From an uncultured Bacteroidota bacterium (GTDB lineage: Bacteria; Bacteroidota; Ignavibacteria; UBA10030; UBA8401), in NCBI GenBank assembly GCA_963827085.1, contig CAWGZY010000002.1:261889-325888 (forward strand): a stretch of DNA of 64,000 bases, given 5' to 3'. The notes under the pieces are model-generated. The model saw only the letters and a program-made list of their open reading frames with translations, did not search any database and was not told the origin of the DNA. Made by a program: the position numbers and the translations under genes. Within the stretch, counting starts at the first letter, position 1, and each line of letters begins with the position of its first letter. Shown piece by piece: positions 47,127 through 64,000 of the stretch.

Positions 47127-48590
47127 ATGGTGTATCCGATGTACCCCGATACATTTTGGAGTTTCAAACATGCGTTAAAATTTGTATCGAAAAAAGCAAG
47201 CTTCCCTCCTTTGGGACTATTAACTGTTGCTGCATTGCTGCCGAGAGAATGGAACAAAAAACTTATCGATACGAACGTCAGGGATCTCGCCGATGAAGAC
47301 ATCCTGTGGGCGGATTATGTTTTTATCAGCGCCATGTCCATTCAGAGTGAATCGGCACATCAAATAATCGATCAATGTAAAAAACTGCATGCAAAAATCG
47401 TAGCCGGCGGACCGCTTTTTACGAGCAGCTCTGAATACTACGAACACATCGATTATCTCGTGCTTGATGAAGCCGAAATCACTCTCCCGCAATTTTTACA
47501 CGACCTGAGCGAGGGAAAAGCGAAACATCTATACACGACGGACGAATGGGCGAATATTACCACCACTCCGCTCCCTCTTTGGGATCTTATATCGAGTAAT
47601 GATTATACTTCAATGAATGTGCAGTACTCACGCGGCTGTCCCTTCGATTGCGATTTCTGCGATATTACCGTTCTCTACGGAAGAATACCCAGAACCAAAA
47701 CCCAACCGCAGGTGATGGCCGAATTGGACGCATTGTCCCGCAGCGGCTGGAGAGGTCCGGTTTTTTTTGTCGATGATAATTTTATCGGGAACAAAGGGAA
47801 ATTGAAAAAAGATATTCTCCCTGCAATTATTGAGTGGAACGAGAGAAACAATACTCCATTTTACTTTAGCACGGAAGTCTCAATCAATCTTGCCGACGAT
47901 GATACCCTGATGCAGCTTATGGTGAAAGCAGAATTTGAAGCCGTGTTCATCGGCATCGAGTCTCCGAACGAAGAGAGTCTGATCGAATGCAATAAGATCC
48001 AGAACAGAAACCGCGATCTGATTGCAAGTGTGAAAAAGATTCAACGCGCGGGTCTGGAAGTTCAAGGAGGGTTCATCGTCGGGTTTGATAACGATCCTCA
48101 TACAATCTTCGATACGCTGACAAACTTCATCCAGGAAAGCGGTATTGTAACGGCGATGGTCGGATTATTAAACGCACCGAGAGGAACGAAACTCCACAAA
48201 AGACTTCTTAACGAAGGAAGATTGTTAAACGATTTTACCGGAAACAATACCGATTTTTCTATGAACTTCGTTCCGCAGATGAATTCCCAGAAACTCATCG
48301 ATGGATATAAGACGATCCTGGACACTATCTATTCTCCCAAATACTATTATCAACGCGTCACTCTTTTTTTGAAAGATTTCAAACCGAAGAAGAAGGTGTT
48401 TCATCTTAATCCAAATTACATCCTCGCGCTGCTGCGATCGATGTTTAAACTAGGCGTAATAGGCGAAGAAAGAATTTATTACTGGAAGTTATTCCTGTGG
48501 TCGTTGTTTTGTAAACCCCAGCTTTTCTCGTTGGCAATATTGTATACGATTTACGGATTCCATTTCAGAAGGATCTCCACGAGTATTTAA
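47127..48590 (+). CDS. B12-binding radical SAM protein with a C-terminal DUF4070
   Basis: N-terminal B12-binding domain (KILMVYPMYPDTFWSF...), the CPFDCDFC CxxxCxxC cluster, and DUF4070-like ...LFCKPQLFS...YGFHFRR. ATG at 47127 preferred over TTG at 47109. Confidence 0.85.
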   Translation: MVYPMYPDTFWSFKHALKFVSKKASFPPLGLLTVAALLPREWNKKLIDTNVRDLADEDILWADYVFISAMSIQSESAHQIIDQCKKLHAKIVAGGPLFTSSSEYYEHIDYLVLDEAEITLPQFLHDLSEGKAKHLYTTDEWANITTTPLPLWDLISSNDYTSMNVQYSRGCPFDCDFCDITVLYGRIPRTKTQPQVMAELDALSRSGWRGPVFFVDDNFIGNKGKLKKDILPAIIEWNERNNTPFYFSTEVSINLADDDTLMQLMVKAEFEAVFIGIESPNEESLIECNKIQNRNRDLIASVKKIQRAGLEVQGGFIVGFDNDPHTIFDTLTNFIQESGIVTAMVGLLNAPRGTKLHKRLLNEGRLLNDFTGNNTDFSMNFVPQMNSQKLIDGYKTILDTIYSPKYYYQRVTLFLKDFKPKKKVFHLNPNYILALLRSMFKLGVIGEERIYYWKLFLWSLFCKPQLFSLAILYTIYGFHFRRISTSI

Positions 48591-48607
48591 CAATACGGTT
48601 AAACGTC

Positions 48608-49012
48608 ATGGATCCATCTTCTCAGCGCTACTCGGCTCTTATAATCGATGACTCCCCGCACATGCGAATCCTCATGTCAAAGCTGCTGCTCCGCAGCGGG
48701 TTCACGCTCGTCGACGTTGCCGTCAACGGTGCCGACGGACTGCAGCACTTCACCGCATCCAATCCCGATATTGTTTTTCTTGATGCAGTGATGCCCGAGA
48801 TCGACGGACTGGATGTATTGCGAAAAATTAAGTCCCTCAAACCCGACACCATCGTCGCCATGACGACCTCGCTGTCGGAAAAGGAAAAAGTATTGAGGTT
48901 CAAGGAAGCGGGAGCCGATTACTACCTGCTTAAACCATTTGAAGAGGGAAAATTCATGGAGACCCTGCAAAAAATGGTCGCGATTCTCGACCGACGTTCG
49001 AAAAAGGAATAA
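48608..49012 (+). CDS. Single-domain response regulator (CheY-like receiver)
   Basis: ALIIDDSPHMR...DIVFLDAVMPEIDG...YLLKPF. Confidence 0.85.
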   Translation: MDPSSQRYSALIIDDSPHMRILMSKLLLRSGFTLVDVAVNGADGLQHFTASNPDIVFLDAVMPEIDGLDVLRKIKSLKPDTIVAMTTSLSEKEKVLRFKEAGADYYLLKPFEEGKFMETLQKMVAILDRRSKKE

Positions 49013-49016
49013 GGCG

Positions 49017-49352
49017 ATGGAATGCCCGAAATGCAATCTGGTCAATGACGATACCCAGCGCTTTTGCTCATCATGCGGCACTGCGCTCGGCAATGTGTGC
49101 AAACGGTGCGGAACCGCCGGCAAGCACGAAGCCAAATTTTGCGGTATGTGCGGAGCTGCGTTTCCTGTTTCAGGCGAGCAGCAGCGACTCTTTACACACG
49201 CGGCCATCACTCCGTCGCACACACCTCGACAATACACGGCTGAAGAAATTGAGGACCTTCTTTCTCTGCAAAAGCTCGCCCGCCAAGAAGCGCTGAATTC
49301 GGAGCAGTTGTCGCAAAAAGACCTCGACACTCTCTTCCAAAAATCAGAATAG
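49017..49352 (+). CDS. Double zinc-ribbon domain protein
   Basis: MECPKCNLVNDDTQRFCSSCG...CKRCGTAGKHEAKFCGMCG. Four CxxC pairs. Confidence 0.55.
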   Translation: MECPKCNLVNDDTQRFCSSCGTALGNVCKRCGTAGKHEAKFCGMCGAAFPVSGEQQRLFTHAAITPSHTPRQYTAEEIEDLLSLQKLARQEALNSEQLSQKDLDTLFQKSE

Positions 49353-49355
49353 ACC

Positions 49356-51056
49356 ATGACAACCGAAGACCAGAAATTTCTCACGGCACTTGTAGAACAG
49401 GGAACGCTTGATCGTGATTTGCTGAAAGCAAGGGGAGGTGTTCTTGAAACTTCCATGCGAGAAAAAGGAATGGCTCGCGCCCTTCTGTCGACTTTCAATC
49501 TCACCGAGGAAATTATTGCCGATACCCTGAGCAGAACATTTGCTCTGGGAAAGATGACCATTGCCGCCGAGATCGAGACGGCTCCGGAACAGCTCTTCAC
49601 GGAGGATGAGATACGGTCATTCAGGACAATACCGGTGTTCCGGATTGGATTGGAATTGACCATGGCGTTTATCGATCCACCGGTCAAACAATTGCTCCTC
49701 CGATTGCAGCAATTGACCGGGTATAGAGTTCTTCCTGTCTTCACGACGGCTTCCGATTTTGACGCAGCGTTGAAAAAATACCGAGGGTCAATCGACCGCA
49801 TTCAATCTCTGAAGTCATCTATCGTCCTGGAGAAGTACGATATCCGTAACGTGAAGGGGAAAGAGGGCCCGTTCCCTGCCGACGGCAAGATCGAAGCAAC
49901 AATGGCACAGGTGATGGACGAGATCATGCTGCGGGCAGCTAAGGCGGGTGCGAGCGACATCCATATTGAGCCTTCAGACACGGAGTTGATGATACGCTTC
50001 CGCGTCGACGGCGTGCTTCAACGAGTCGTCTCCTTCCCCCTTTCATATCACCCCGGAATGATTTCTGTGATCAAGTCCAAGGCGAAAATGGACATTTTCG
50101 AACACGCCATCCCGCAAGACGGAAGAATGGAGTTGACGTTTGCCGACCGCGTCTTCGACGTTCGGGTCAGCAGCCTCCCTCTCCTGAAAGGTGAAAAGGT
50201 CGTGATGCGCCTCCTCGGGAAATCGGCGATGATGATTGATCTCGCAAATCTCGGCTTTTCACCGCGGAATCTCAGCCTCTTTCGTATGCTCTTGAAACTC
50301 CCGAATGGGGTTGTCCTCGTCACGGGCCCAACGGGAAGCGGAAAAACAACGACTCTCTATTCGGCGTTGAACGAGAAGAAAAATATTACAACAAATATAA
50401 CGACCGTAGAGAATCCGGTAGAGTACACGCTACCGCTCATCAATCAAGTTCAAGTAGCTTCAGAACGCGGGTTGACGTTTGCAACTTCTCTGCGCGCCAT
50501 TCTCCGCCAGGACCCCGATGTAATTCTGATTGGAGAAATCCGCGACGCCGAAACGGGTATGATTGCAACGGAAGCTGCATTGACCGGACATCTCGTACTG
50601 AGCACACTCCATACCAATGACGCCATCGGCGCAATTTCCCGGATGGTAAACCTCGGTATTGCCTCCTTTTGGGTGAGCGCTTCGGTTATTGGAGTAGTCT
50701 CGCAGCGCCTCGTCAGAAAAATTTGTGTGCGGTGCAAACAAGAGTACACGCCCGACGACGAATCCCTATCGTTGCTCGGCCTTTCAGGTGTGCCCCGCGG
50801 TACCACGCTTTTCAGGGGAAAGGGGTGCGCTTTCTGCAGCGGCACAGGATACAAAGGGAGAATCGCAATCCACGAGGTCTTTATCATCACCGAAGAAATG
50901 CGGGATATCATCGTTGGCGAAGTAACAACGAGCAAACTCCGACAGCTTGCCATCGAAAACAATTTCCGCGACATGTTTTATGACGGAATACAGAAAGCCC
51001 TTGCGGGTATTACATCCGTCGAAGAGGTGCAACGGGTCACTCGTCGTCTTTCCTGA
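49356..51056 (+). CDS. GspE/PilB-family secretion ATPase with an N-terminal MshEN/T2SSE_N-like domain
   Basis: Walker A LVTGPTGSGKTTTL, Asp box, His box, and a C-terminal tetracysteine CVRC...CAFC. Confidence 0.85.
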   Translation: MTTEDQKFLTALVEQGTLDRDLLKARGGVLETSMREKGMARALLSTFNLTEEIIADTLSRTFALGKMTIAAEIETAPEQLFTEDEIRSFRTIPVFRIGLELTMAFIDPPVKQLLLRLQQLTGYRVLPVFTTASDFDAALKKYRGSIDRIQSLKSSIVLEKYDIRNVKGKEGPFPADGKIEATMAQVMDEIMLRAAKAGASDIHIEPSDTELMIRFRVDGVLQRVVSFPLSYHPGMISVIKSKAKMDIFEHAIPQDGRMELTFADRVFDVRVSSLPLLKGEKVVMRLLGKSAMMIDLANLGFSPRNLSLFRMLLKLPNGVVLVTGPTGSGKTTTLYSALNEKKNITTNITTVENPVEYTLPLINQVQVASERGLTFATSLRAILRQDPDVILIGEIRDAETGMIATEAALTGHLVLSTLHTNDAIGAISRMVNLGIASFWVSASVIGVVSQRLVRKICVRCKQEYTPDDESLSLLGLSGVPRGTTLFRGKGCAFCSGTGYKGRIAIHEVFIITEEMRDIIVGEVTTSKLRQLAIENNFRDMFYDGIQKALAGITSVEEVQRVTRRLS

Positions 51057-51335: not shown

Positions 51336-54300
51336 ATGGATGACACAAGACCACAATCGCACCGTCAGTATTTACCATTGTGGAATTTCTGGCTTGCAGC
51401 GGCAGTCTGGACAGCCCTCATCGGTTTCTCCTTTGTGTACAATGTACATTCGACACGCTCCATGATGTCGCAAATGGCTCTCTTCGAAGCACGCAGGATT
51501 TTTGAGAGAAACATCGCAAGCAGTCATTGGGAGGCTGGTTCGCTCGGCCTTCAGCTCAACTTCGGATCGAACGCACTCACGCAAGGCCGCATCACGAGTT
51601 TAAAACTCGTCGACGAGAAAAACGCCCCCGATGTCTGGGAACGCACTTCCGTCGAGCGGCTTTCGCACGGAGAAGTTGAAATAGCCGATGTCATGACGGT
51701 CGATGGGTTTCCGTATCTTCGCGTGATGAAACCGCTCGTCGTTACCAGGCGCTGCCTGGATTGCCACTCGGCGCAAGGCTACTCCGAGGGAGAAATAAGG
51801 GGCGGGATAAGCGTTGCCGTACCGCTCAAATCTTCGCAGGAAATCGAAGCAAGAGATCAGAAGGCTTCCCTTCTGTGGCATTTCATTATCTATCTTGTCG
51901 GGCTCGGCGGAATCATAGGGGGAACGATAAGCGTTCAGAAGAAAAGGCGGGCTCACGAATTTGCCCGTGAGGCTCAAGTCTCCGCAGAAAGGAAGCTGGC
52001 ATCTCAGGAGCAATATCTTAAAGCGATCGTTCAGGGCTCGCCGATTGCTGTGGTCGTTTTGGATTTACATCAGATCATCGAGTCATGCAACGAAGCATTC
52101 GAGAACATTTTCGGATACTCCATAACGGAAGCGGTCGGCAAGAACCTGGATGATTTGATCGTTCCGGCTGACCGCAGAACTGAAGCGGAACAATTGACGC
52201 GATCGTCCAACAGCGACGGAAGGGTTCACAAGGAATTGACGTGCCGCCGGAAGGACGGATCACTTGTCGCTGTCAAGGTTTTCGCCAAGTCGATTTCCAT
52301 TAATGGACTCGAAGTGGGAGTCGTAGCGCAGTACGTCGATATCAGCGAGCAGAAGCAATCTAAGGAGAACCTGCAGAGAGAGAGAACGCTCCTTCGGACA
52401 CTCATCGACAACCTGCCAGACGCAATCTACGCCAAAGACACTTCCTGCCGTAAGACCATTGCCAATCCTGCAGACGTGCATAATATGGGGTTGCAGTCAG
52501 AAGCTGACGTCTTAGGCAAAGACGACTTTGACCTTTTCCCAAAAGATGTCGCGGAGGGATTCTTTGCTGACGACCAATCGGTTATTCAAACCGGCATACC
52601 CGTGCTCAATAGAGAAGAATATTTCATTGACGCAGAAGGCCGAAAGCGCTGGCTGGAAACTTCTAAACTTCCTTTGAAGGATGAGCGGGACAAAATTATT
52701 GGCATCATCGGCATCGGTCGCGAAATTACGAAAAGAAAAAATGCCGAAGAAGCACTCAAGCATGAAAAAAGTGTTATGGAAGCCCTGATGGACAACGTCC
52801 CGGACAGCATCTACTTTAAAGACCGCCAATGCCGGCTGACGAAAATCAGCCGAAAGATGTTGAATGATTTGAAAATGAATGATATGAGCCAGGTCATCGG
52901 AAAAACGGACGTGGATTTGTTCGGCGAGGAATTTGGCCGGAAAACACTGGAGAACGACGAGCGCCTGATGGCAATAGGTAAACCAATCGTGGGGTTAACC
53001 GAGAGCAGGAAGTTGGAGGACGGGAGTTTCTATTGGACGTCAACCACGAAGGTACCGCTTCGGGACAACAGCGGCCAAATCGTCGGGCTGGTCGGCATCA
53101 CACGCGAAATCAATGAGTTCATGAAGGCGCAGGAGGAGCGCGAACGTGAACGTAACCTCCTCCGCACGCTTATTGATAACATACCTGACTACATCTATGT
53201 GAAAGACCGGGACGGCCGTTTTATTGTATCCAATACAGCCGTCGTGCATCAAATGGGGCTTGCTTCCGAGAACGAGCTTTTAGGAAAAACTGATTTCGAC
53301 TTTTTCCCCCACGATCTGGCTGCAAAATACTACGCAGAAGAACAAGCGATTATCCAGGCTGATAAGGGAATCTACAATCATGAAGGTCCCTCCGTCGATG
53401 CCAGCAAAGAAGAGAAAGATCGATGGGTTACGACGAACAAAGTCATTCTTCGGGATGGTCAAGGCAGCATCACCGGGTTCGTCGGTATCGGCCGCGACAT
53501 CACTGAGCGAAAACGGGCGGAAGAACAAATTCGTTCCCAATTATCGATTATCGAGGAACAGAATCTCGCGCTCACAACTGCAAATGAGAAAGCACTGGAA
53601 GCCACTAAAGCAAAAAGTGCATTTCTCGCCAGCATGTCGCATGAGCTGCGAACTCCTCTGAATGCCATCATCGGCTACAGCGAAATGCTGGACGAAGAAA
53701 TGGGCGACAATGGCGACGACCGGTATCGCGCAGATGTTGAGAAGGTACGTTCGGCCGGCAAACATCTTTTAGGATTGATCAACGATATTCTCGATCTCTC
53801 GAAGATCGAATCCGGCAAGATGGAGTTGTATCTCGAAGAGTTCGACCTGAAAAACGTGATCGGGGAAGTGGCTTCGATGGTTCAGCCCCTGATCGCTCAG
53901 AATGAGAATACTTTTGTGTTGACGGGGAACGAGGAGTCTCGGCTTGTGCGGCTCGATCTCACGAAGGTCCGACAGATCCTCTTTAATCTTATCAGTAATG
54001 CGTCGAAGTTTACGCAGAATGGCACCGTGTCGCTCGAGGTCGCTTCCGTTCCCGGCGACGCCGCTCCACGGCCGGCAATTCGCTTCAGGGTTTCCGATAC
54101 CGGAATAGGAATTACGAAAGAACAAGAAGAACGGCTTTTTAAAGAGTTTGCTCAAGCGGACGGCTCCACGACTCGCAGGTACGGCGGCACCGGCCTTGGC
54201 CTTGCGATCTCGAAACGATTTTGTGAAATGATGGGAGGTTCGATAGGCATAGAAAGTTCCTCAAGTAAAGGAACTACATTTGTCGCTACTTTACCGCAGC

Positions 54301-55118
54301 GAATTGAGGAACCCCACGAAGGGACGATCCCTATAACAGTACCGTCGATTATCGCAGACAGAGTCTTCCCGAAAAAATCGTGTATCCTTATTATCGATGA
54401 CGATCCCGGTGTGCTGGATTTGTTGACCCGTTATCTTACGAAAGAGGGCTATCTCACTGTAGCCGTCTCGAGCGGCGACGAAGGCCTGCAGCGCGCAAGA
54501 GAAATCATACCTCTCGCAATTATTCTCGATGTTGTGATGCCGTCAAAAGATGGGTGGGCTGTCTTGCAGGAAATAAAGAGCGATCCGGCCTTGGAAGACG
54601 TCCCCGTCGTCATGCATACGATGGTGGACGACAAGAATTTCGGGCTTGCGGTCGGGGCTTCGGAATACCTGACCAAGCCGGTCGATAAAGAAAAGATCCT
54701 GCACGTCATCCAACGGCTCACACCCAAGGTCAAACGCAGCTACGTCCTTGTTGTCGATGACGATTCGGACGCTCGCACTACCATCTGCCGTCCAATCGAG
54801 AAAGCAGGGTGGGAAGTGCGGACTGCCGACAACGGAAAATCAGCCATCGCAATTCTCGAGAAAGAAATCCCCGGCATCATCTTCCTGGATCTCATGATGC
54901 CCGTCATGGATGGATTTGAGTTTCTTGCCATTCTCCAAAACAAAAAAGAGTGGACTCAAATTCCCGTGGTCATCGTCACATCGAAGGACCTCACGATCGA
55001 CGAACGTCAACGATTGAATCGATCCGTCATGAACGTCATCCAGAAGGGGGACCTGACGCCGGACAAACTCCTCAAACAGTTGACGATGCTTGTTCCCCGC
55101 ATGTCGCAGAAACCATAA
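51336..55118 (+). CDS. Hybrid sensor histidine kinase: DUF3365-type heme-c sensor domain (CLDCH), TM, about five PAS/PAC domains, HisKA, HATPase_c, two REC domains
   Basis: RRCLDCHSAQGY (CxxCH). H-box SHELRTPLNAIIGY. G-boxes DTGIGI and GGTGLGL. Receiver Asp contexts IIDDDPG and VVDDDSD. Confidence 0.9.
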   Translation: MDDTRPQSHRQYLPLWNFWLAAAVWTALIGFSFVYNVHSTRSMMSQMALFEARRIFERNIASSHWEAGSLGLQLNFGSNALTQGRITSLKLVDEKNAPDVWERTSVERLSHGEVEIADVMTVDGFPYLRVMKPLVVTRRCLDCHSAQGYSEGEIRGGISVAVPLKSSQEIEARDQKASLLWHFIIYLVGLGGIIGGTISVQKKRRAHEFAREAQVSAERKLASQEQYLKAIVQGSPIAVVVLDLHQIIESCNEAFENIFGYSITEAVGKNLDDLIVPADRRTEAEQLTRSSNSDGRVHKELTCRRKDGSLVAVKVFAKSISINGLEVGVVAQYVDISEQKQSKENLQRERTLLRTLIDNLPDAIYAKDTSCRKTIANPADVHNMGLQSEADVLGKDDFDLFPKDVAEGFFADDQSVIQTGIPVLNREEYFIDAEGRKRWLETSKLPLKDERDKIIGIIGIGREITKRKNAEEALKHEKSVMEALMDNVPDSIYFKDRQCRLTKISRKMLNDLKMNDMSQVIGKTDVDLFGEEFGRKTLENDERLMAIGKPIVGLTESRKLEDGSFYWTSTTKVPLRDNSGQIVGLVGITREINEFMKAQEERERERNLLRTLIDNIPDYIYVKDRDGRFIVSNTAVVHQMGLASENELLGKTDFDFFPHDLAAKYYAEEQAIIQADKGIYNHEGPSVDASKEEKDRWVTTNKVILRDGQGSITGFVGIGRDITERKRAEEQIRSQLSIIEEQNLALTTANEKALEATKAKSAFLASMSHELRTPLNAIIGYSEMLDEEMGDNGDDRYRADVEKVRSAGKHLLGLINDILDLSKIESGKMELYLEEFDLKNVIGEVASMVQPLIAQNENTFVLTGNEESRLVRLDLTKVRQILFNLISNASKFTQNGTVSLEVASVPGDAAPRPAIRFRVSDTGIGITKEQEERLFKEFAQADGSTTRRYGGTGLGLAISKRFCEMMGGSIGIESSSSKGTTFVATLPQRIEEPHEGTIPITVPSIIADRVFPKKSCILIIDDDPGVLDLLTRYLTKEGYLTVAVSSGDEGLQRAREIIPLAIILDVVMPSKDGWAVLQEIKSDPALEDVPVVMHTMVDDKNFGLAVGASEYLTKPVDKEKILHVIQRLTPKVKRSYVLVVDDDSDARTTICRPIEKAGWEVRTADNGKSAIAILEKEIPGIIFLDLMMPVMDGFEFLAILQNKKEWTQIPVVIVTSKDLTIDERQRLNRSVMNVIQKGDLTPDKLLKQLTMLVPRMSQKP

Positions 55119-55137
55119 CATTGAGAATCGGCAGCCA

Positions 55138-56022: not shown

Positions 56023-56074
56023 GAGAGCATCTCCTTTTTAGGGTGCAACAGAAACTATTCCGTTGAATGGTCGA

Positions 56075-56220
56075 CTGATGTTACGCAAAAATCCTTTTTG
56101 ACACACCCCCAACCCCTCTCTCTTTCGCCGCACGCTCACACACAGAGGGGAGCGGCGGGGTGTGTCCTTTGTTTAGTGGAGCACTTCCTTCATAAATTTT
56201 TCAGAATGCGTAACATCAAT
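56075..56220. repeat. MITE family 2, copy H4, in inverted orientation. Abuts the family-1 element at 56224-56358, giving a composite that mirrors 5075-5346.
   Basis: ctgatgttacgcaaaaatcc ... cagaatgcgtaacatcaat. Confidence 0.65.
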
Positions 56221-56223
56221 AAT

Positions 56224-56358
56224 TAGAGACTTCTGAATAATTCCAAAAGTCTGCTCACGCAAAGGTATAGCTTCGCCAGACGCAAAGTCGCAAAATGATT
56301 TAAAAATAGGCTCCTTGCGCCTTGGCGGCTTGGCGCGAGACGATTTTTCAGATGTCTC
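56224..56358. repeat. MITE family 1, copy E, in inverted orientation. Its interior contains the family-4 motif cgccagacgcaaagtcgc.
   Basis: agagacttctgaataattcc ... atttttcagatgtctc. Confidence 0.7.
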
Positions 56359-56473: not shown

Positions 56474-57388
56474 CTATAGATAAATCCCGTACCAAATGAC
56501 GGAGGGGCTGAGTCTAACTGCCGGCATCGGCAGGTGTATATAGTTAAGAAACTTCCACACTTTTCGGAGTAACGGCGAATCGCCGGGAAGCTTCCGCAAA
56601 TCGAGGTCGAGCGCCAGATACAGCCCGGCGGATGGGTTGCCGCTCTGCAGTCCTTGTACCGTTCGCCCGACAGCAAGTCCGATAATCGGAGGCCAATAAC
56701 CCCGGAGATTTTCCGGCAGCAGATCGTGGACGGTGATTCCGATCCAGAATTTTTGCCCTTCATTGTCTTCAAGAAAACCTGGCTGCATCTGGCCTGGTGC
56801 AAGAACGTTATTCTTGGACGCAACGTACGAAAATTTTGGCGTGAAACTGTTCAGCAATGGGACATAATACTGCGCGACCGGGTACCCGGCCCCCAATACA
56901 TTGGCCAACTCTTTGACAGGGTCGAATCCAATGTAATTAACATGCCCGTCTTCTATCTTCATGAAAGTGAAAAAAGCGAGGGAAGTTGCCGCTCCGTAAA
57001 GAACCGCATCCCGGTCATCATAGCCTGCCCATGAAAATCCCATTGTGGAAATTACGTTTCCCATTGCGCTTCCGTAAAAATGAAGAAGCTTATCCTGATT
57101 TCGAGCAGCAAAATCTTGGCGAAAAAAAAACGACGTGTAATGCTCCTTCCACAGCGGCTCGTACCGGGCGAAGTAGACTGCAGCCCCGCTCGCTAAAACA
57201 GTGCTGCCAAAAACGGAAAGCCGTGTTATGCTGATTTGAGATGAATCTGCAGGCATTGTATTTATTCTTTGGGGTTGTGGTACGACAAGACCGGTGGGCA
57301 GAAAGCAGCAGATTATCAAAAAAAAATGCTGAAACAATGCATCTCCTCGCCGCCTTTTAGAGAGAAACCTTCTTGTCAGGATTGTCAT
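56474..57388 (-). CDS. Hypothetical exported/membrane protein. Start may be the internal Met corresponding to coordinate 57256.
   Basis: 304-aa ORF with N-terminal hydrophobic segments and no recognisable family. Confidence 0.45.
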   Translation of the reverse strand: MTILTRRFLSKRRRGDALFQHFFLIICCFLPTGLVVPQPQRINTMPADSSQISITRLSVFGSTVLASGAAVYFARYEPLWKEHYTSFFFRQDFAARNQDKLLHFYGSAMGNVISTMGFSWAGYDDRDAVLYGAATSLAFFTFMKIEDGHVNYIGFDPVKELANVLGAGYPVAQYYVPLLNSFTPKFSYVASKNNVLAPGQMQPGFLEDNEGQKFWIGITVHDLLPENLRGYWPPIIGLAVGRTVQGLQSGNPSAGLYLALDLDLRKLPGDSPLLRKVWKFLNYIHLPMPAVRLSPSVIWYGIYL

Positions 57389-57529: not shown

Positions 57530-58090
57530 TTAGGTCAATTCAACTTTTTCAGGAACGGCCATCGCACCGATCGTATTGCATACCTGCTCGACTTCATACT
57601 TCCGTGTTTCACTGAAACTTTTCAACACTTGTGCAATTCGTTTCGATTCTTTTTCTATCGAATTGATATCCATCGTCAGTTCCTGCGACAGCTGAACCGA
57701 CCGTCTGACTTTGCCGAGTGTAAGGGCTATAACGGCAAGCGGATTATTGACTTGATGCTGTAAACCTAATACCACTTCCCGCATTGTGGAAAGTTGGGTT
57801 TCTTTTGTCTGCAATTCCTGCTCTTTTATTAATCTTTGAGTTTCACTTTCGTGAAGTCTTGCGCGGATGTTCAATACTTTTACCCACGTCATTGCCAACA
57901 GCCACATGAAAGGAAGGGCGTTGAACAATTCCAGAACATCATAAACAGTTACTGCCGCGTGCCTTGCAATGATAAAAAGCCTGATCATCACCATGAATAA
58001 ATACAAATAGATAATATAACCGGAAATGACAGCCGGATATTTTGTCGGCAATTCTCTGATCGAGCGGAAAAGATTGACAAGTGTTTTCAT
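57530..58090 (-). CDS. Membrane protein with a HisKA-like phosphoacceptor/dimerisation domain but no ATPase domain
   Basis: Two TM helices, then an H-box-like LGLQHQVNNPLAVI. 186 aa in total. Confidence 0.5.
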   Translation of the reverse strand: MKTLVNLFRSIRELPTKYPAVISGYIIYLYLFMVMIRLFIIARHAAVTVYDVLELFNALPFMWLLAMTWVKVLNIRARLHESETQRLIKEQELQTKETQLSTMREVVLGLQHQVNNPLAVIALTLGKVRRSVQLSQELTMDINSIEKESKRIAQVLKSFSETRKYEVEQVCNTIGAMAVPEKVELT

Positions 58091-58384: not shown

Positions 58385-58565
58385 GACGCCAAGCACGCCA
58401 AGAAGCGATGAGTATAAAGAATTACAATACTCTTGGCGTTCTCCGCGCCTTGTGCCGACCCGAAGGTCCAAAGGACTCCATTGGAGGTTCCCTTGGAAAG
58501 GCATCTCCCAACGGGATCGCTTCGCGAACTTCGTGAGCGGTAAAACACAAGATTATGTATTGGAA
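58385..58565. repeat. Family-2-related repeat fragment. Shares the 30-bp core ggcatctcccaacgggatcgcttcgcgaac with 25961-26176.
   Basis: Exact 30-mer match plus the flanking cgccaag / cttggcg inverted repeats. Confidence 0.55.
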
Positions 58566-59701
58566 ATGTCACTTATTTCTTTCAACAACCTTATCCTTAC
58601 GGTTGTACCTATCTTCTCTGCATTTTCAATCGTGAGGCTCCCGCCGTAGAGTTCTGCAAGGGTTTTTGCGATAACCAGACCAAGACCTGCCCCTTGCTGC
58701 TCATAATGACGGCGTTCAAATTGCTGGAATGCGGCGACGTTACGTATTTGCTCCTTAGACATACCGCGGCCTTCATCCCGCACTGTGATCGTTACCTCGT
58801 CGTTAATTTCCTCGCTCGAAATATATATCTTTGTTCCGGGTTCCGAGAATTTTAACGCGTTGTTAATAACCTCCTCAACGATTTTTGTCAGATGCTCCGA
58901 CGTTATTTTTACTGAAAGTTCATTGACTGCAATGAGAATTGAATCCGGGCGCTTCTGGGCCACTGCTTCCTGCTCCGCGGCCGACCGGACGACCTCACGC
59001 AATAATGCCGCTGATTCCCGGCGCATTGTCGCGATGCTGTTTTGATCGTTCATCCAAAACTGTAATTCTCCGAAAAGAATCATGTTTTCCAACAAATGAT
59101 GGAGCCGCCGTCCCGATTTGTGAATGAATGCACCGATCTCTTTTATTTCCTCAGCGGGCAGATCGCTTTCTTCTTGCAGAATCTGAGCATACCCGAGTAT
59201 GGCATGCAGGGGAGTGCGAAATTCATGCGGCAGAGACTGTACAATACTTGTTTTAATGTCGTCAAAGTGTGATTCGTAATATTTCTGCAATCCTTTTTTT
59301 TGAATGAGCCGCGCCTTTATTGCACTGATAAGGTCACCGGAGGTAAATGGTTTTGTGAGATAGTCATCTGCACCAAGCTGCATCCCTTGCCGCAAATCGC
59401 TCTTTTCCGCATTGCCTGTCAAAAAAATAAACGGGATGGCGGCACATTCGGGATCCTCTTTCAACATGCCGAGCAATGTGTGGCCATCCATCTTCGGCAT
59501 CTTAATGTCGCAAAGGACAAGGTCCGGGTGGTGTATTTTTACAGCCGTCAAACCATCCAGGCCGTTGATTGCCTCGATAGTGTCATAGCCTATCGTGTTG
59601 AGTGTCGCCGATATCATCGCACGGTAGTCGTCATCATCGTCAATGACAAGGATCTTCTGCTGCGGAACGTGAGACAGTGTATTCGTCGCTGCATGTTTCA
59701 T
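58553..59701 (-). CDS. Response-regulator / histidine-kinase hybrid (REC-HisKA-HATPase_c)
   Basis: ILVIDDDDDYR...LCDIKMPKMDG (REC). HEFRTPLHAILGY (H-box). GAGLGL (G2). Confidence 0.85.
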   Translation of the reverse strand: MKHAATNTLSHVPQQKILVIDDDDDYRAMISATLNTIGYDTIEAINGLDGLTAVKIHHPDLVLCDIKMPKMDGHTLLGMLKEDPECAAIPFIFLTGNAEKSDLRQGMQLGADDYLTKPFTSGDLISAIKARLIQKKGLQKYYESHFDDIKTSIVQSLPHEFRTPLHAILGYAQILQEESDLPAEEIKEIGAFIHKSGRRLHHLLENMILFGELQFWMNDQNSIATMRRESAALLREVVRSAAEQEAVAQKRPDSILIAVNELSVKITSEHLTKIVEEVINNALKFSEPGTKIYISSEEINDEVTITVRDEGRGMSKEQIRNVAAFQQFERRHYEQQGAGLGLVIAKTLAELYGGSLTIENAEKIGTTVRIRLLKEISDISNT

Positions 59702-59725: not shown

Positions 59726-62700
59726 TCATTGTACGTCAATCGCTTTACGGATCTTCTGTAAAACTTCATCCTGCATATACGGCTTCTGAATAAAATCCTT
59801 CAGCCCGGCCTTGAACATCTCGGACTTCGTTTCCGGATCGAAAAATCCGCTTGCGAAGATTACTTTTGCTTCCGGGTTGATTGCTCGAATTTTCCTGAAT
59901 ACGTCATGACCGCCAAGGGCAGGAAGCCCGATGTCGGAGAGAATAACGGCTATTTCTTTTTGATGGCTCCGGTACATTTCCACTCCTTGCAGGCCGTCTT
60001 CTGCGGTCAATACCGCGTAACCCTTCAAAACAAGAATGCTCTTTGCAAGAGTCCTCAGGACCTCTTCGTCCTCGATCAACAAAATTGTCTCCGTCCCGCC
60101 CGGTATTCCCTCAAGGTTTTTTTTTGCTGCTGCCATTTCTACGCCTGCTCGCTCCGGTATCGGAAGATACACGGTGAAACTCGTTCCTTCGCCGAGTACG
60201 CTCCGAACATCAATAAAGCCGTGGTGGTGTTCCACGATGCCAAACACCACAGCAAGACCTAAGCCGGTTCCTTTTCCGGGACCTTTTGTTGTAAAGAAGG
60301 GTTCAAAGATTCTCTGACGCGTTGATTCGTCCATTCCAATTCCCGTATCGGCGACTTCAACCTTGACATACTGCCTGGCAGTTGCGTTTGTGAATCGCGA
60401 GCTAATAGTTTCACCTTTGACGGCCCTGGTTGTAATTGAAAGCATTCCGCTGCTTGGCATTGCGTCCCGTGCATTCACGAGGAGGTTCAACAACAGTTGA
60501 TGAATCTGGCTCGAATCGGCAACGATCGCGGGTAAATCTTGCTGGAGAGATGTAGAGATGGTGATGGTCTTGGAAAATGTCTCTTGCAGAAGTTTGGTGA
60601 TTTCCCTTATGGTGTCGTTGATTTTAACCGATTCTAAAACTGGTTCAGTTTTCCGTGCAAAGAGCATGAGCTGTTTGACCAACGAAGCGCCGCGCTGCGA
60701 TGCCTTCATAATTGCAGCGACGCTCTCTGCATACATTTTCGAATCTTCCCGCAGGCGTTCCAGGAGGCTTGTATGGCCCATAATGATGCCGAGAATGTTA
60801 TTGAAATCGTGGGCGATCCCACTGGCGAGTGTTCCGATGCTTTCAAGTTTTTGAGCTTGAATTAGCTGTGATTCTAAGGAAAGCTCTGAGGTAATGTCGC
60901 GTTTCACTCCGACATAATTGATGATTTTTCCCTTCTCGTTGAAAACGGGTGAGATGGACGTCTCATCGGTGAACAATGTTCCATCCTTCTTTTTGTTGAT
61001 GAATCTGCCGCTCCATTTTCCCCCCGTGGAGATCGTTTCCCAAAGGTTCTCATAAAACTCGGTGTTTTGCCGTCCGCTTTTCAAGATGCGTGGATTCTGA
61101 CCAATCACCTCCGAACGCCGATGGCCGGTGATTCGTTCAAATGCCGGGTTGACATATTGAACGATGCCTTGGGGATCAGTGACAAGAATGGCTTCTGCAG
61201 TCTGCTCAAAAGCAGTTATCAAGCGCTGCCGTTCTTCTTCAGCTCGCTTGCGCTCGGTGATGTCGCGATCGATGCTGATGGAGTGCAGCTTTCCTCTCCA
61301 AATGATCGGCATGCCCGTGTACTCAATAATATTATCTTTTCCATCAGGCCGAATCCACGAGAAGGAACCCACATATCCCGATCCCGGGGTACGGGATTCC
61401 GAACTCTTGTCTTTTGCTGTGTCTGTAAGGGGTATCTGGAGTCCCAGCGTATTTCCCAGCGTGAGCAGTTCTTCGCGAGTCCGGCCTGCCATGCCGGCAT
61501 ATTGATTATTACACTCGACCAGTCTTCGTTTGGCAGGGTTAGGGTCTTCAATGTAAATACTGATGCCGTCAAAGATATTCTCGAACACCATCCGAAACCT
61601 TTCTTCAGACTCCCGAACTGCATCGTCCACCCGTTTCCGCTCGGTGATATCGGTGATCATCGCAAAGCTGCCGATGAACACTTCTTGACTGTCCATAATT
61701 ACTTTGGCGGAAAACAAGAACCATTTTTCGCTGCCATCTTTGCACCGGAGTCTTCGGTCATACTGTCCGCTTATTCCGCGTTTACGCCGCTGGAATTCTT
61801 CTGCCTGCATGGAACGCTCATCGTCGACCACGAGGTCGATGAACGGTTTGCCGATCAACTCCTCGGGAGCATACCCCAGCATACGCACAACCGCATCGTT
61901 CACCTCGGTTGTTCTAAATTCGCTGTCGAGAAACCATACTCCTTCGAGCGCCGTTTCAATAACGCGCCGGAATTTTTCCTCACTTTTCTGCAGCGCCTGT
62001 TCCGCTTGCTTGCGCTCGCTAACATCGGAGGCAACGCCGACGAGCGCGACGGCACATCCCTTATCATCACGCACAATGGATGTGGAAAGAGACGCGAAAA
62101 ATTCGCGACCGTCTTTTGCCCGGTTCAAAAGTTCTCCGTGCCAGCCATCATCCCGCGCCGCGTTGTAAATTGCGGCGGCAAGATTTGGAGGATTGTTCGG
62201 CGAGTGAAGGATGTTGACATTCTTTCCCAGTATTTCATGCTCGGCGTACCCGTATGTGGTCAGAAACGCATCGTTGACAAAGAGGATGGTGTCATCCATG
62301 TCAGTGATGCTCACACATTCGCCGATGCATTTTACCGTGTGGGCAAGCAAGTTGATCTGTTTCTCTGCCCGCTTGCGCTCGGTGATATCCTCCATGATGA
62401 TATGCACCAGGGTCACCTGATTGTGATCGTCAAGTATAGGGACATACCGCAAATAGGTATAAATGGTTTTTTCCCATTTGGAGGTATACGGATACTCGCC
62501 GAAGCTGGCCCGACCCTTTTCAATACAGGATTTGAGCGCAGCCGAGATGCCGGACTTGATGAGCGGTTGAAATGTCAACAGGTTTATTTTCTTTGTCTCC
62601 TCGACAGATGGGGACCCTAGAATTTGGAGTGCTGCGGGGTTCACCTCAAGGATTTGTCCTGATCCATTCGCAAGCAGGATCCCAAGCGGCGCATGTTCGT

Positions 62701-64000
62701 ACAGCAATTTGAAGCGTTCCTCGCTTTGGCTCAGTGCCTTTTCCGCCTGCTTGCGTTCGGTAATCTCAATATGATTGGCCTGATGATACAGTATCTTGTC
62801 CGATGTATCTCTAATTTCCTTTACAGACACGAGAACGAAGATTCGACTCCCATCACGTCGTAGCACTTCGATCTCTCTCGGTTCCATAACACCATTTTTG
62901 GCAAGTATCCGCAGTACTTCCTTTCTATCGTCTGGGTTCGCGTACAGTTGACCAACGTTAGCCACTTCAGCCATCATCTCGCCCGGGTTACCGTAGCCGT
63001 ACATCTGCGCATAGGCCATGTTGCAATGAAGCAGATGCCCGTCGGTTGCGGCCGTTGAAATTCCCATGATGGAATTCTCGAACAGAGATCGGTATTGCGA
63101 TTCAGAATCCCGTAACGCTTCTTCCGCGCGCTTGCGCTCGGTGATGTCCTGATATATTCCCGTCCACTTGACCACTTTACCCTTGGCATCCAACACTGCT
63201 TCGCCGCGGCCATGCACGTAGCTGACGCTGCCATCGGGCTTGAGTATCCGGCCTTCAATAGGCTGTGGCTTGAGGTTGTTCAACGTCTTGCGGGCGGCTT
63301 CCACAACCATGGCGCGGTCTTCGGGATGGAACGCCTGTATAGTCATCTCCGCGGTGAGGGGGACAGTCCCCGGCGCGATGCCAAAAATGGCGTACATTTC
63401 GGGAGACCAGATTACCTTGTCTTCAGCGGGTATCCATTCCCAGCTGCCAATCCTGCCGATGCGCTGAGCTTCGGTCAAGCGGCGCTCGCTCACCTTCAGC
63501 GTATCCTCGGCCTGCTTGCGCTTTGTGATATCTGTCGCGATTCCTAATCTGCCGACTGCTCTCCCGGACGCATCCCGCAAAATAGAACCTGAAAGGAGCA
63601 TAGGGAGGGTGCTCCCGTCTTTCCGTTGGAACTCTATTTCGGCCTCCGCTGAACCTACCCGATCTACGCGATTCCTTAACTCATCCAACAATGCCACAGA
63701 GTGTTTGGGAATAATAATGTCCAACGTTTTCTTTCCCAATACTTCTTCGGATTTCCAGCCATAGACCGTTTCTGCAAATTTGTTCCAATAGAAGATGACA
63801 TCGGCGAGGTCGGTCGCAACCGCCGCGCTGGTAAACTGGTCCAGAAGCGTAGCCTGGAATTTAATCTTATCCTCTGCCCGTACGTGCTCTTTCCGAATTT
63901 TTGCTTCACGCAGCTCACGTCGAATGGCGGGAGTCAACCGCTCAAGGTTCCCTTTCATCACATAATCATGGGCGCCGGCTTTCATCGCTTCGACTGCTGT
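59726..64000 (-). CDS. Very large multi-PAS hybrid sensor histidine kinase (more than 1419 aa). The N-terminus lies beyond the window end: partial N-terminal REC, about 9 PAS/PAC domains, HisKA, HATPase_c, C-terminal REC.
   Basis: The ORF is open to the window edge and the first residues GAHDYVMKG are the end of a REC domain. Repeated ITERK(R/Q)AE PAS-PAC linkers. H-box SGIAHDFNN. G-boxes DTGIGM and GTGLGL. C-terminal REC ILLIEDEE...LSDIGLP. Confidence 0.9.
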   Translation of the reverse strand, partial: TAVEAMKAGAHDYVMKGNLERLTPAIRRELREAKIRKEHVRAEDKIKFQATLLDQFTSAAVATDLADVIFYWNKFAETVYGWKSEEVLGKKTLDIIIPKHSVALLDELRNRVDRVGSAEAEIEFQRKDGSTLPMLLSGSILRDASGRAVGRLGIATDITKRKQAEDTLKVSERRLTEAQRIGRIGSWEWIPAEDKVIWSPEMYAIFGIAPGTVPLTAEMTIQAFHPEDRAMVVEAARKTLNNLKPQPIEGRILKPDGSVSYVHGRGEAVLDAKGKVVKWTGIYQDITERKRAEEALRDSESQYRSLFENSIMGISTAATDGHLLHCNMAYAQMYGYGNPGEMMAEVANVGQLYANPDDRKEVLRILAKNGVMEPREIEVLRRDGSRIFVLVSVKEIRDTSDKILYHQANHIEITERKQAEKALSQSEERFKLLYEHAPLGILLANGSGQILEVNPAALQILGSPSVEETKKINLLTFQPLIKSGISAALKSCIEKGRASFGEYPYTSKWEKTIYTYLRYVPILDDHNQVTLVHIIMEDITERKRAEKQINLLAHTVKCIGECVSITDMDDTILFVNDAFLTTYGYAEHEILGKNVNILHSPNNPPNLAAAIYNAARDDGWHGELLNRAKDGREFFASLSTSIVRDDKGCAVALVGVASDVSERKQAEQALQKSEEKFRRVIETALEGVWFLDSEFRTTEVNDAVVRMLGYAPEELIGKPFIDLVVDDERSMQAEEFQRRKRGISGQYDRRLRCKDGSEKWFLFSAKVIMDSQEVFIGSFAMITDITERKRVDDAVRESEERFRMVFENIFDGISIYIEDPNPAKRRLVECNNQYAGMAGRTREELLTLGNTLGLQIPLTDTAKDKSSESRTPGSGYVGSFSWIRPDGKDNIIEYTGMPIIWRGKLHSISIDRDITERKRAEEERQRLITAFEQTAEAILVTDPQGIVQYVNPAFERITGHRRSEVIGQNPRILKSGRQNTEFYENLWETISTGGKWSGRFINKKKDGTLFTDETSISPVFNEKGKIINYVGVKRDITSELSLESQLIQAQKLESIGTLASGIAHDFNNILGIIMGHTSLLERLREDSKMYAESVAAIMKASQRGASLVKQLMLFARKTEPVLESVKINDTIREITKLLQETFSKTITISTSLQQDLPAIVADSSQIHQLLLNLLVNARDAMPSSGMLSITTRAVKGETISSRFTNATARQYVKVEVADTGIGMDESTRQRIFEPFFTTKGPGKGTGLGLAVVFGIVEHHHGFIDVRSVLGEGTSFTVYLPIPERAGVEMAAAKKNLEGIPGGTETILLIEDEEVLRTLAKSILVLKGYAVLTAEDGLQGVEMYRSHQKEIAVILSDIGLPALGGHDVFRKIRAINPEAKVIFASGFFDPETKSEMFKAGLKDFIQKPYMQDEVLQKIRKAIDVQ

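Follow-up and report, generated by a model that had tools for sequence, protein, structure and literature searches.

The conserved functional unit at this locus is a 2.4-kb triad of genes for a CheY-like receiver (REC), a small double-zinc-ribbon protein (DZR) and a PilB/GspE-family ATPase, which lies inside a sensor-kinase cluster of an uncultured member of the Ignavibacteria and is apparently undescribed so far. The triad was found in a contiguous 64,000-nucleotide stretch of DNA (the window), across which domains were assigned with Pfam and NCBIfam HMMs; its genes are separated by 4 bp (REC to DZR) and 3 bp (DZR to ATPase). In a genome scan, REC and DZR genes were located immediately upstream in 54 of the 56 family ATPases whose upstream DNA was readable, and directly upstream in only 2 of 18 outgroup ATPases. 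The first-pass annotation of this region had read the ATPase as an orphan tied to the receiver and zinc-ribbon proteins, and triad conservation upholds that part of its reading; it had missed the 2.4-kb core and a FliM-like motif in DZR. The combination of a GspE ATPase with REC and DZR partners, which it had marked as worth seeking in other genomes, gave a strongly positive result.

Gene content and organization

The genes and motifs of the region are as follows, in window coordinates:

47127-48590, + strand: B12-binding radical SAM gene (rSAM); Pfam B12-binding, Radical_SAM and DUF4070
48608-49012, + strand: REC134, CheY-like single-domain response regulator, 134 aa; Pfam Response_reg, 91 bits
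49017-49352, + strand: DZR, small double-zinc-ribbon protein, 111 aa, eight Cys; Pfam DZR
49023-49079 and 49098-49154, + strand: zinc knuckles of DZR, with a disordered linker after the second
49230-49268, + strand: DZR motif A, QYTAEEIEDLLSL, from family alignments
49308-49337, + strand: DZR C-terminal motif B, LSQKDLDTLF, from family alignments
49356-51056, + strand: PilB/GspE-family hexameric ATPase, 566 aa; Pfam T2SSE (410 bits) and MshEN (32 bits)
51336-55118, + strand: HK1260, hybrid histidine kinase; TM, Tll0287-like (DUF3365), TM, 4 PAS, HisKA, HATPase, 2 REC
51753-51767, + strand: CLDCH of HK1260 (residues 140-144), with hydrophobic segments (~15-35 and 181-203) on either side
55138-55506, + strand: REC123, second single-domain receiver, partner of HK1260; Pfam
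55570-56022, - strand: conserved hypothetical protein, 150 aa; no family match
56474-57388, - strand: DUF2279 predicted lipoprotein; Pfam, 35 bits
57530-58090, - strand: HisKA(DHp)-only membrane-anchored protein, 186 aa; Pfam HisKA, 26.6 bits (cutoff 26.9)
58553-59701, - strand: RECHK382, REC-HisKA-HATPase kinase; Pfam
59726-64000 (window edge), - strand: PASHK, PAS-array hybrid kinase, at least 1419 aa; 8 PAS, HisKA, HATPase, REC

The locus is read from the + strand through 55506 and from the - strand starting at 55570, and a 279-bp gap separates the ATPase gene from HK1260; the earlier view of the seventeen kilobases as a single unit is not supported. Each domain call of the first-pass annotation was reproduced with Pfam and NCBIfam, the HisKA-only protein falling just under its cutoff, and the many PAS domains it had noted number eight in PASHK and four in HK1260 by Pfam. 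Its gene list was confirmed as far as it went; the DUF2279 lipoprotein and the 150-aa ORF had been overlooked. The length of PASHK is a lower bound because no in-frame stop occurs before base 64000, and the N-terminus lies beyond the window. Another possible start of rSAM is a TTG at 47109.

Conservation and distribution of the triad

All six relatives retrieved via the ATPase, with identities as low as 62%, contain the triad. Some Ignavibacteria carry tandem arrays of two or three whole triads (L040-L048, L051, L052, L054), and several MAGs contain two or three ATPase copies. Pairwise distances of the three proteins correlate with one another (r = 0.83-0.88), and paralogue classes are consistent among REC, DZR and ATPase; the triad has been duplicated as a whole cassette, and its three proteins co-diverge.

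Versions of the triad occur in Ignavibacteria, in one deltaproteobacterial MAG and on unassigned high-GC (67-70%) contigs, an evidence base that consists almost entirely of MAGs and metagenome contigs. Among the distant versions, L080 (70% GC) has the order REC-DZR-ATPase-CheX, CheX being a CheY-P phosphatase, and the deltaproteobacterial L053 has the order DZR-ATPase-REC; L077 and the P0145 contig have a REC-DZR pair. REC is not universal, since L075 lacks DZR, L081 has a DZR-ATPase pair with no adjacent REC, and in L079 a GGDEF protein replaces REC and is followed by DZR and a protein with an MshEN N-terminus.

The ATPase

Walker A (G324PTGSGKT), Walker B (VILIGEIRD at 389), the His box (TGHLVLSTLHTND at 410) and a tetracysteine Zn site (CVRC at 457, CAFC at 491) are intact in the window ATPase and conserved in its family; with these motifs, the Zn site and the T2SSE score, the protein is a member of the PF00437 assembly ATPases. 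It reaches neither the NCBIfam equivalog cutoff for PilB (TIGR02538; 521.5 bits vs. 675.65) nor that for GspE (TIGR02533; 491.3 bits vs. 630.25). In a PDB search the solved PilF, PilB and EpsE sequences scored about alike against it, and the NCBIfam model of the archaellum ATPase FlaI matched weakly. In the array ATPases at positions 2 and 3 of the tandem triads, both His-box histidines are lost.

The c-di-GMP-binding MshEN consensus consists of two 24-residue motifs, (R/K/L)LGxx(L/V/I)(L/V/I)xxG(L/V/I)(L/V/I)xxxxLxxxxLxxQ, placed 5 residues apart (PMC11731258). Both are degenerate in the window ATPase, which retains 6 of 11 and 5 of 11 key positions, with the second motif misplaced; an alignment with Geobacter PilB shows substitutions at the motif residues R, G, G and Q. 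This counts against the c-di-GMP-linked switch proposed in the first-pass annotation. Among the distant DZR-linked ATPases, some (L053, L079) retain intact MshEN motifs.

The HMM domain search found no pilus or secretion partner genes (PilC, GspF, PilM-Q, pilin) in the 64-kb window, and platform, alignment and pilin genes (PilC, PilM-Q) adjoin none of the inspected copies (flanks of L001, L003, L005-L007, L040, L046, L047, L053, L080 and L081). The ATPase is an orphan relative to pilus and secretion genes in the window and in every inspected context; for this region itself, the same had been noted from the sequence.

Receiver and zinc-ribbon protein

REC134 is a stand-alone CheY-like single-domain response regulator that retains the acidic pocket (D14/D15), the phospho-acceptor D59, S90, Y106 and K109; D14, D15, D59, S90 and K109 are invariant across the REC family alignment, with Y106 conserved in 90% or more. 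Its best NCBIfam match is CheY, though under that model's cutoff, and CheY accounts for 8 of the 10 solved sequences nearest to it in a PDB comparison. Neither the window nor the surroundings of the Ignavibacterial triads yielded che genes, an Hpt domain or CheX in the domain search.

DZR matches PF12773 with 40.8 bits and has two CxxC...CxxC knuckle pairs, with Cys at positions 3, 6, 17, 20, 28, 31, 42 and 45, seven of the eight being invariant in the family alignment. Its AF2 model consists of zinc-ribbon hairpins, a disordered stretch (52-66) and two helices (75-94, 100-108). Motif B has the family form LSQxD(I/L)DxLF (consensus LSQDDIDKLF); of 57 triad DZRs, 50 fit a loose pattern of it and 41 a strict one, and a search of 2134 other ORFs with the strict pattern matched only duplicated DZRs. 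Conservation of the motif extends over all DZR classes; when 1.84 billion proteins were searched, 90 of the 114 small representatives taken from the best hits carried it.

The CheY-P-binding motif of flagellar FliM is LSQXEIDALL (PMC6700473). LSQKDLDTLF is identical to it at 5 of the 9 positions that are specified and differs conservatively at 3 more, and the DZR consensus is identical at 6 of 9; the consensus match and the AF2 helix 100-108 after a disordered linker are both features of the FliM type. Motif B resembles the FliM docking peptide for CheY-P and is a candidate docking peptide itself. The motif is N-terminal in FliM and C-terminal in DZR. A partner other than REC, such as the ATPase or another protein, is possible for motif B.

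Flanking kinases and other neighbors

The kinase pairs HK1260-REC123 and PASHK-RECHK382 are conserved neighbors of the triad only inside one subclade, where they are retained in spite of rearrangement; L015 has the collinear order rSAM-PASHK-RECHK-REC-DZR-ATPase-HK-REC. HK1260 orthologs (45-73%) adjoin the triad in L001, L003, L009 and L011-L018, with REC123 orthologs (67-76%) downstream of HK in L001, L003, L011-L018 and L025. In L012, L013 and L015, RECHK382 orthologs (68-79%) are encoded immediately 5' of the triad and in its orientation; those of L013 and L015 are preceded by PASHK homologs (42-50%). The kinase modules were rightly counted as members of the locus in the first-pass annotation. 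Its suggestion of heme c as a general input is not supported: HK1260 carries a predicted periplasmic heme-c sensor domain of the Tll0287-like type with a CxxCH site (PF11845, 43.2 bits; cutoff 24.1), and among relatives this domain is limited to the closest ones, L008 and L009. The last PAS domain of PASHK is NifL/LOV-like but lacks the Cys. The HisKA-only protein has an H-box (LQHQVNNPL) and a hydrophobic N-terminus and is possibly a phosphotransferase or kinase modulator; L001, L013 and L029 encode homologs (34-38%) no more than 10 kb from the triad.

The rSAM protein belongs to class B (PF02310, PF04055 and PF13282 above cutoffs; CPFDCDFC present), and no functional equivalog passed its NCBIfam cutoff (best 78 bits vs. 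360). Its gene ends 17 bp upstream of REC134. Homologs occur near the triad only in L008, which is of the same species as the window, and in L015, and are absent at most triad loci; rSAM is a lineage-specific neighbor. The thematic link once drawn between this B12 enzyme and a B12 photoreceptor at 29419 is not supported, as the two are 17 kb apart with unrelated genes between them and rSAM adjoins the triad in two lineages only. The 150-aa ORF, for which no Pfam-scale family was found, has a homolog directly 3' of the ATPase in L003 (48%) and one in L008 (99%); the + strand ORF that overlaps it (55768-56226) has no homolog beyond L008. The DUF2279 lipoprotein gene was matched only in L008 and is not conserved as a neighbor.

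Proposed function and alternative explanations

The triad is probably, although by no means certainly, a phosphorylation-controlled module of receiver, adaptor and motor ATPase, in which REC~P docks on the adaptor and the output is a filament machine. Sensor kinases adjoining the triad would phosphorylate REC134; RECHK382 is the likeliest direct phosphodonor, with PASHK acting above it, and HK1260-REC123 may form a second signaling branch. DZR, in which a flexible linker joins two zinc ribbons to a pair of predicted acidic amphipathic helices, would be the adaptor: REC134~P may bind its FliM-like C-terminal peptide LSQxD[IL]DxLF, and perhaps also the related motif A, while the zinc-ribbon end would hold the ATPase, so that docking could switch motor activity, assembly or localization. 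As output, the ATPase would probably power a type-IV-filament machine, for pilus extension or for secretion of a type-II-like kind, whose genes would lie elsewhere in the genome; this is an assumption, since no PilC, PilM-Q or pilin gene stands beside any copy. We infer both protein contacts, the kinase feeding REC134 and the ATPase output.

REC and DZR would be merely generic neighbors if the ATPase were the ordinary housekeeping PilB or GspE of a pilus or secretion system with dispersed genes. The scattering of pilT, pilQ, pilB and pilC in Melioribacter (PMC3534657) and the full-length alignment of the ATPase to the PilB model, with every catalytic motif kept, lend this some credit; yet it appears very unlikely, given that REC and DZR are kept at 54 of 56 loci and duplicate along with the ATPase, that the three co-diverge, that the ATPase is present two or three times in several MAGs, and that the ATPase scores under both equivalog cutoffs. 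Somewhat less improbable, but still rather unlikely, is a genuine triad whose ATPase serves in signaling or drives an unrecognized machine, with tandem paralogs perhaps forming mixed hexamers. Its conserved Zn site and GSPII-type N-domain are typical of assembly ATPases, pilus genes are commonly dispersed, and no conserved alternative partner is nearby; on the other hand, platform, alignment and pilin genes are never adjacent in contexts from at least three lineages, the His boxes of the tandem copies are degenerate, and a review of PilB has a section on "PilB as a regulator of other processes" and considers that ATPases like PilB and TfpB may be mixed or paired.

The roles within the triad could also be distributed differently: the acidic C-terminal motifs of DZR might bind the ATPase or another protein, and REC might act straight on the ATPase in the manner of PATAN-REC proteins, direct binding of REC proteins to PilB1 being known from cyanobacteria (bioRxiv 10.1101/2021.06.11.447907). 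The DZR-ATPase pair of L081 and the GGDEF protein in the position of REC in L079 are consistent with this arrangement, which nevertheless has a low probability in view of the near match of motif B to the CheY-P docking consensus, the retention of REC at nearly all loci, and the CheX that accompanies the L080 version. Finally, it is extremely improbable that the entire 17 kb, B12 radical-SAM enzyme included, constitutes a single switch linked to redox/oxygen and c-di-GMP. The periplasmic CxxCH domain of HK1260, the Pfam MshEN match and the position of rSAM 5' of REC, seen again in L015, could suggest such a switch, but the MshEN motifs are degenerate, the heme-c domain is confined to closest relatives, most triad loci are without rSAM, the domain search found no GGDEF, EAL or PilZ genes in the locus, and the genes lie on both strands; synteny largely refutes it.

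Comparison with known systems

The phosphorylation-controlled module favored here has partial counterparts in several systems. The window ATPase shares the GSPII/MshEN-type N-domain, T2SSE ATPase domain and Zn site of the c-di-GMP-binding MshE/PilB ATPases, and differs from them in its degenerate 24-residue motifs. In type IV pilus extension of Xanthomonas and Pseudomonas, the small adaptor PilZ bridges the REC-containing FimX to the assembly ATPase PilB (PMC11656802); the triad would likewise place a small adaptor between a REC-bearing signaling protein and a PilB-type ATPase. Its proposed adaptor, however, is a double zinc ribbon that ends in a FliM-like tail and lacks a PilZ domain, REC134 keeps the phospho-acceptor Asp that is missing from the FimX REC, the signal is presumably phosphorylation rather than c-di-GMP, and the genes form a fixed operon distant from pilus genes. 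In Synechocystis phototaxis, the kinase-fed PATAN-REC regulators PixE and PixG act directly on PilB1 (bioRxiv 10.1101/2021.06.11.447907; PMC11181946) and similarly link a response regulator to a PilB-type motor ATPase; in contrast, the triad, known from Ignavibacteria, a deltaproteobacterial MAG and high-GC contigs, lacks a PATAN domain and has a separate zinc-ribbon gene between REC and ATPase.

Archaeal CheY-P works via a dedicated adaptor, CheF, on the archaellum motor with its secretion-superfamily ATPase (PMC9126983), a sequence of receiver, adaptor and ATPase that the bacterial triad would parallel; the window ATPase also matches FlaI weakly. CheF, however, is a PH-domain dimer unrelated to DZR and binds CheY near the phosphorylation site, not via an EIDALL-type peptide. 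Such a peptide is found at the N-terminus of FliM/FliY, with which the DZR motif agrees at most positions and shares a disordered region predicted to turn helical and, as presumed partner, a CheY-like receiver; in DZR, the predicted docking motif is C-terminal on a zinc-ribbon protein tied to a PilB-family ATPase instead of the flagellar C-ring. A more far-reaching interpretation, which we regard as distinctly unlikely, is that DZR-linked ATPases represent a distinct and widespread output device of CheY-type signaling, in which a FliM-like peptide was transplanted onto a zinc ribbon, phospho-CheY directs a PilB-family motor that works without depending on the classical operons for type IV pili or type II secretion, and tandem cassettes in some Ignavibacteria may form mixed hexamers with degenerate subunits. 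If true, this would be a third coupling of CheY to a motor, the other two being the flagellar switch and, in archaea, the link from CheF to the archaellum; a phosphorylation-controlled module would represent a new variation on the regulation of PilB.

Genes of the locus

Open reading frame (ORF) listing and HMM scans reproduced the domain calls of the first-pass annotation with minor additions, and its gene list is borne out.

Genes of the locus (coordinates, strand, description; basis or remark in brackets)
47127-48590, +, rSAM, B12-binding radical SAM/DUF4070 enzyme (HMM scans; alternative TTG start at 47109)
48608-49012, +, REC134, receiver, 134 aa (ORF listing and HMM scans)
49017-49352, +, DZR, double-zinc-ribbon protein, 111 aa (ORF listing and HMM scans)
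49356-51056, +, T2SSE ATPase with MshEN-type N-domain, 566 aa (HMM scans)
51336-55118, +, HK1260, hybrid kinase, 1260 aa (HMM scans)
55138-55506, +, REC123, second receiver (HMM scans)
55570-56022, -, conserved ORF, 150 aa
56474-57388, -, DUF2279 lipoprotein (HMM scans)
57530-58090, -, HisKA-only protein, membrane-anchored (Pfam borderline, 26.6 against a cutoff of 26.9)
58553-59701, -, RECHK382, REC-HisKA-HATPase kinase
59726 to window edge, -, PASHK, hybrid kinase with eight PAS domains (no stop before base 64000)

HK1260 is separated from the ATPase gene by a gap of 279 bp; its Tll0287-like (DUF3365) domain carries the putative heme-c site C140LDCH between two hydrophobic segments. This site, the agreement of HMM and ORF results, and the lack of pilus genes in the 64-kb window confirm what the first-pass annotation had observed. 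PASHK runs off the window edge, so that its length of at least 1419 aa is a lower bound; its last PAS domain (residues 924-1053; 60827-61216, minus strand) is NifL/LOV-like (GQNPRILKSG) and lacks the photoactive Cys, which points to a flavin redox sensor and not to a photoreceptor. ORF 55768-56226 (+) was dropped as a gene in favor of the conserved opposite-strand ORF at 55570-56022. A 775-bp AT-rich non-coding stretch 5' of rSAM (46334-47108), with no Rfam element inside, presumably serves as promoter region for rSAM-REC-DZR-ATPase; a riboswitch 5' of rSAM was rejected, as Rfam gives only two tRNAs in the window. Promoter and terminator scans, run with a sigma-70 model that is inappropriate for the phylum, returned counts near the shuffled expectation and were not used to define operons. 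PADLOC gave no meaningful matches, and a role in defence was set aside.

A conserved REC-DZR-ATPase triad

Close homologs of the ATPase occur by the hundreds in Ignavibacteria and 'Bacteroidota' MAGs. All six relatives found via the ATPase (99% to 62% identity) share the order REC (132-135 aa), DZR (102-111 aa), ATPase; the three genes lie a few bases apart, and those around this triad vary among the relatives. A locus scan with one genome per species yielded 68 loci, whose six-frame ORFs were searched with our own REC, DZR and ATPase profiles; the count covered 74 distinct ATPases preceded by 900 bp or more of sequence, and 56 of these reached 500 bits or more with the family profile and were taken as family members. 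The first-pass annotation had proposed looking for GspE ATPases with REC and DZR partners in other genomes, and the outcome was positive: REC and DZR lie directly upstream of 54 of the 56 family ATPases. Nearly all data of this analysis are from MAGs. The two exceptions are L053, with a frameshifted DZR and REC downstream, and L075 (9495-11662), where REC is followed directly by the ATPase, about 75 bp apart and with no DZR gene; a deletion or a faulty assembly might account for this. Of the remaining 18 ATPases, all more distant (Planctomycetota, Patescibacteria, other Proteobacteria), only two have a DZR beside them, and both are degenerate third copies of tandem arrays. REC-DZR-ATPase is thus a widespread 2.4-kb module, undescribed so far as the literature could show, and its three genes very probably form a functional unit.

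A second Ignavibacterial lineage contains two or three complete triads head to tail (L040-L048, L051, L052, L054; in L040 at 9190-11590, 11609-14015 and 14030-16481), set among fatty-acid, histidine-biosynthesis and repair genes, where pilus neighbors are also absent. Pairwise distances of REC, DZR and ATPase across 57 distinct triads are correlated (r = 0.83-0.88), and grouping by ATPase (main class; tandem positions 1, 2, and 3) gives the same classes as grouping by REC or by DZR, a pattern consistent with entire cassettes having been duplicated, after which cognate partners diverged together. All catalytic motifs are intact in main-class and position-1 ATPases; position-2 and -3 ATPases have lost both His-box histidines and have variant Walker A loops, which suggests regulatory or pseudo-enzyme subunits.

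The proposed adaptor and its receiver

Four elements are common to all DZRs: two zinc-knuckle pairs, a variable linker, motif A (Q[YF][ST]xxE[IL]xELL), and motif B ([LV][ST]Qx[DE][ILV]Dx[LI]F), which ends 0-5 residues before the stop codon. Motif B reads LSQKDLDTLF in the window and LSQDDIDKLF in the family consensus; the strict pattern matches 41 of 57 triad DZRs, and among 2134 other ORFs (529,000 residues) it matches duplicate DZR copies only. At the sequence level, motif B is a close likeness of LSQXEIDALL, the phospho-CheY docking motif of FliM/FliY (PMC6700473; PMC9126983); the candidate REC134-binding peptide of DZR is EQLSQKDLDTLFQKSE. A PDB sequence search with the C-terminal half of DZR gave no match in a library that excludes peptide chains under 20 residues. 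The AF2 model of DZR, which reaches only moderate confidence (mean pLDDT 63.9; near 84 in helix 75-94), shows β-hairpin zinc ribbons, disordered residues 52-66, and helices at 75-94 and 100-108. REC134 resembles CheY: of the ten solved proteins nearest to it, eight are CheY, including T. maritima CheY of entry 4iga, CheY is also its best NCBIfam match, and D14, D15, D59, S90 and K109 are invariant, with Y106 nearly so.

Reach beyond Ignavibacteria

Word-indexed searches with DZR reached close relatives only, and an exhaustive HMMER search was needed; the DZR profile gave 874 matches at E ≤ 1e-10 among 1.84 billion representatives. The best 150 of these include 114 small proteins, many from high-GC lineages, with motif B at the end in 90 of the 114. 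On a 1.5-Mb contig of 70% GC (L080:9575-12575), REC, DZR and an MshEN/T2SSE ATPase are immediately followed by CheX, a CheY-P phosphatase family; an HDOD/HD protein lies divergently upstream of this triad. CheX was also searched for near Ignavibacterial triads and not found there. DZR-ATPase occurs in L081, REC-DZR in L077 and on the P0145 contig, and DZR-ATPase-REC in the deltaproteobacterial MAG of L053. On the short contig L079 (3-970), the C-terminus of a GGDEF protein takes the place of REC, followed by DZR and a protein opening with canonical MshEN motifs, which hints at a c-di-GMP-wired variant of the module. The ATPases of L080 and L081 match triad ATPases best among all those collected. 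The distant contexts retrieved mark DZR-ATPase as the broadest pair, REC as its usual third member, and CheX or GGDEF as occasional extras.

Kinases and rSAM beside the triad

Within the clade of at least about 63% ATPase identity, orthologs of HK1260 (45-73%) and REC123 (67-76%) adjoin the triad (L001, L003, L009, L011-L018, L025). In L012, L013 and L015, the gene immediately 5' of REC, in the same orientation, is a RECHK382 ortholog (68-79%), with PASHK homologs before these orthologs. L015 is collinear (rSAM-PASHK-RECHK-REC-DZR-ATPase-HK-REC123), and the window therefore contains these same genes, except that PASHK-RECHK has been inverted and relocated to the downstream side. Triads farther away in sequence are accompanied by different kinases or by none at all. 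The kinases are an accessory at the level of the clade and lie outside the triad core.

The first-pass annotation had tentatively interpreted the 17-kb locus as redox or oxygen signalling to an orphan ATPase with c-di-GMP and B12 connections. This is supported in part: the orphan ATPase tied to REC and DZR holds, and the two kinase modules are conserved neighbors in related genomes, but c-di-GMP, heme-c as a general input and the B12 link lack support. The Tll0287-like heme-c domain is restricted to the window species and to L008 and L009, its closest relatives, the c-di-GMP motifs of MshEN are degenerate in the window ATPase, and rSAM, which matches no functional equivalog in NCBIfam, accompanies the triad only in L008 and L015. 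Nothing connects rSAM with the CarH-like B12 protein at 29347-30312.

Proposed mechanism and output

Neighboring kinases would phosphorylate REC134, and RECHK382-type kinases are the most probable direct phosphate donors, given their position immediately upstream of REC in several genomes. REC134~P may then dock on the C-terminal motif of DZR, which, held on the ATPase by its zinc-ribbon head, would modulate the motor. This proposal rests on a near-obligate, co-duplicating and co-diverging triad, intact ATPase motifs, a CheY-like receiver and a FliM-like terminal peptide.

The ATPase is an orphan, as had been noted from the sequence: across the 64-kb window there is no gene for PilC/GspF, PilM-Q, a prepilin peptidase or a pilin. 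Its output is probably a type-IV-filament machine encoded elsewhere; in the Ignavibacterial genus Melioribacter, pilB, pilC, pilQ and pilT are dispersed (PMC3534657). Since platform genes are constantly absent beside it, the ATPase may instead have a pilus-independent role. For the docking mechanism and a pilus-type output, our confidence is moderate, with chances close to even.

Other genes of the window

The region at 29347-36606 resembles a lipid-modification cluster for light or singlet-oxygen stress: a CarH/LitR-like regulator (HTH_17, B12-binding_2, B12-binding) comes first, then cyclopropane-fatty-acid-synthase-like genes, one of which seems fragmented, as does an amine-oxidase gene, and then a SOUL heme-binding protein and DUF1295. 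The region at 41553-46333 encodes a 1084-aa TPR-CHAT protein and, after it on the opposite strand, a 240-aa ORF without family match and a 248-aa protein that weakly matches sigma-70 region 2; none of these genes is kept beside the triad elsewhere. A 641-aa ORF (10378-12303, minus strand) matches no Pfam family at E ≤ 1e-5. Two adjoining c-type cytochrome genes (3092-5103, minus strand), one with cbb3-type subunit III-like domains, lie near an ammonium transporter at the window start.

Comparison with known systems

How type IV filament assembly ATPases are switched is an active question. The triad, read as regulation of PilB-family motors by receivers through an adaptor, would add a phosphorylation-driven route of motor control and suggest that the CheY-peptide interaction was co-opted beyond flagella; it would also offer an entry point to hundreds of 'orphan' PilB/GspE genes and to unannotated small 'zinc ribbon domain-containing' proteins. 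Full-text literature on PilB or GspE with a zinc ribbon yielded nothing relevant, within a coverage that leaves out most subscription-journal papers, so that an earlier description is possible; a 2024 review of PilB cofactors lists nothing resembling the triad. Known PilB cofactors are c-di-GMP, PilZ-FimX, CpiA, phage peptides and cyanobacterial PATAN receivers (PMC11656802). The triad ATPase itself falls below the PilB and GspE equivalog cutoffs of NCBIfam. As in FimX-PilZ-PilB, an adaptor would join a signalling protein to PilB, but the triad has no PilZ domain; cyanobacterial PATAN-REC regulators bind PilB1, and the triad lacks PATAN. CheY-P docking on FliM and archaeal CheY-CheF-archaellum coupling are also similar in concept, and the triad has neither a C-ring nor CheF; it belongs to none of these four systems and combines a receiver, a zinc-ribbon adaptor and a PilB/GspE-family ATPase in adjacent genes.
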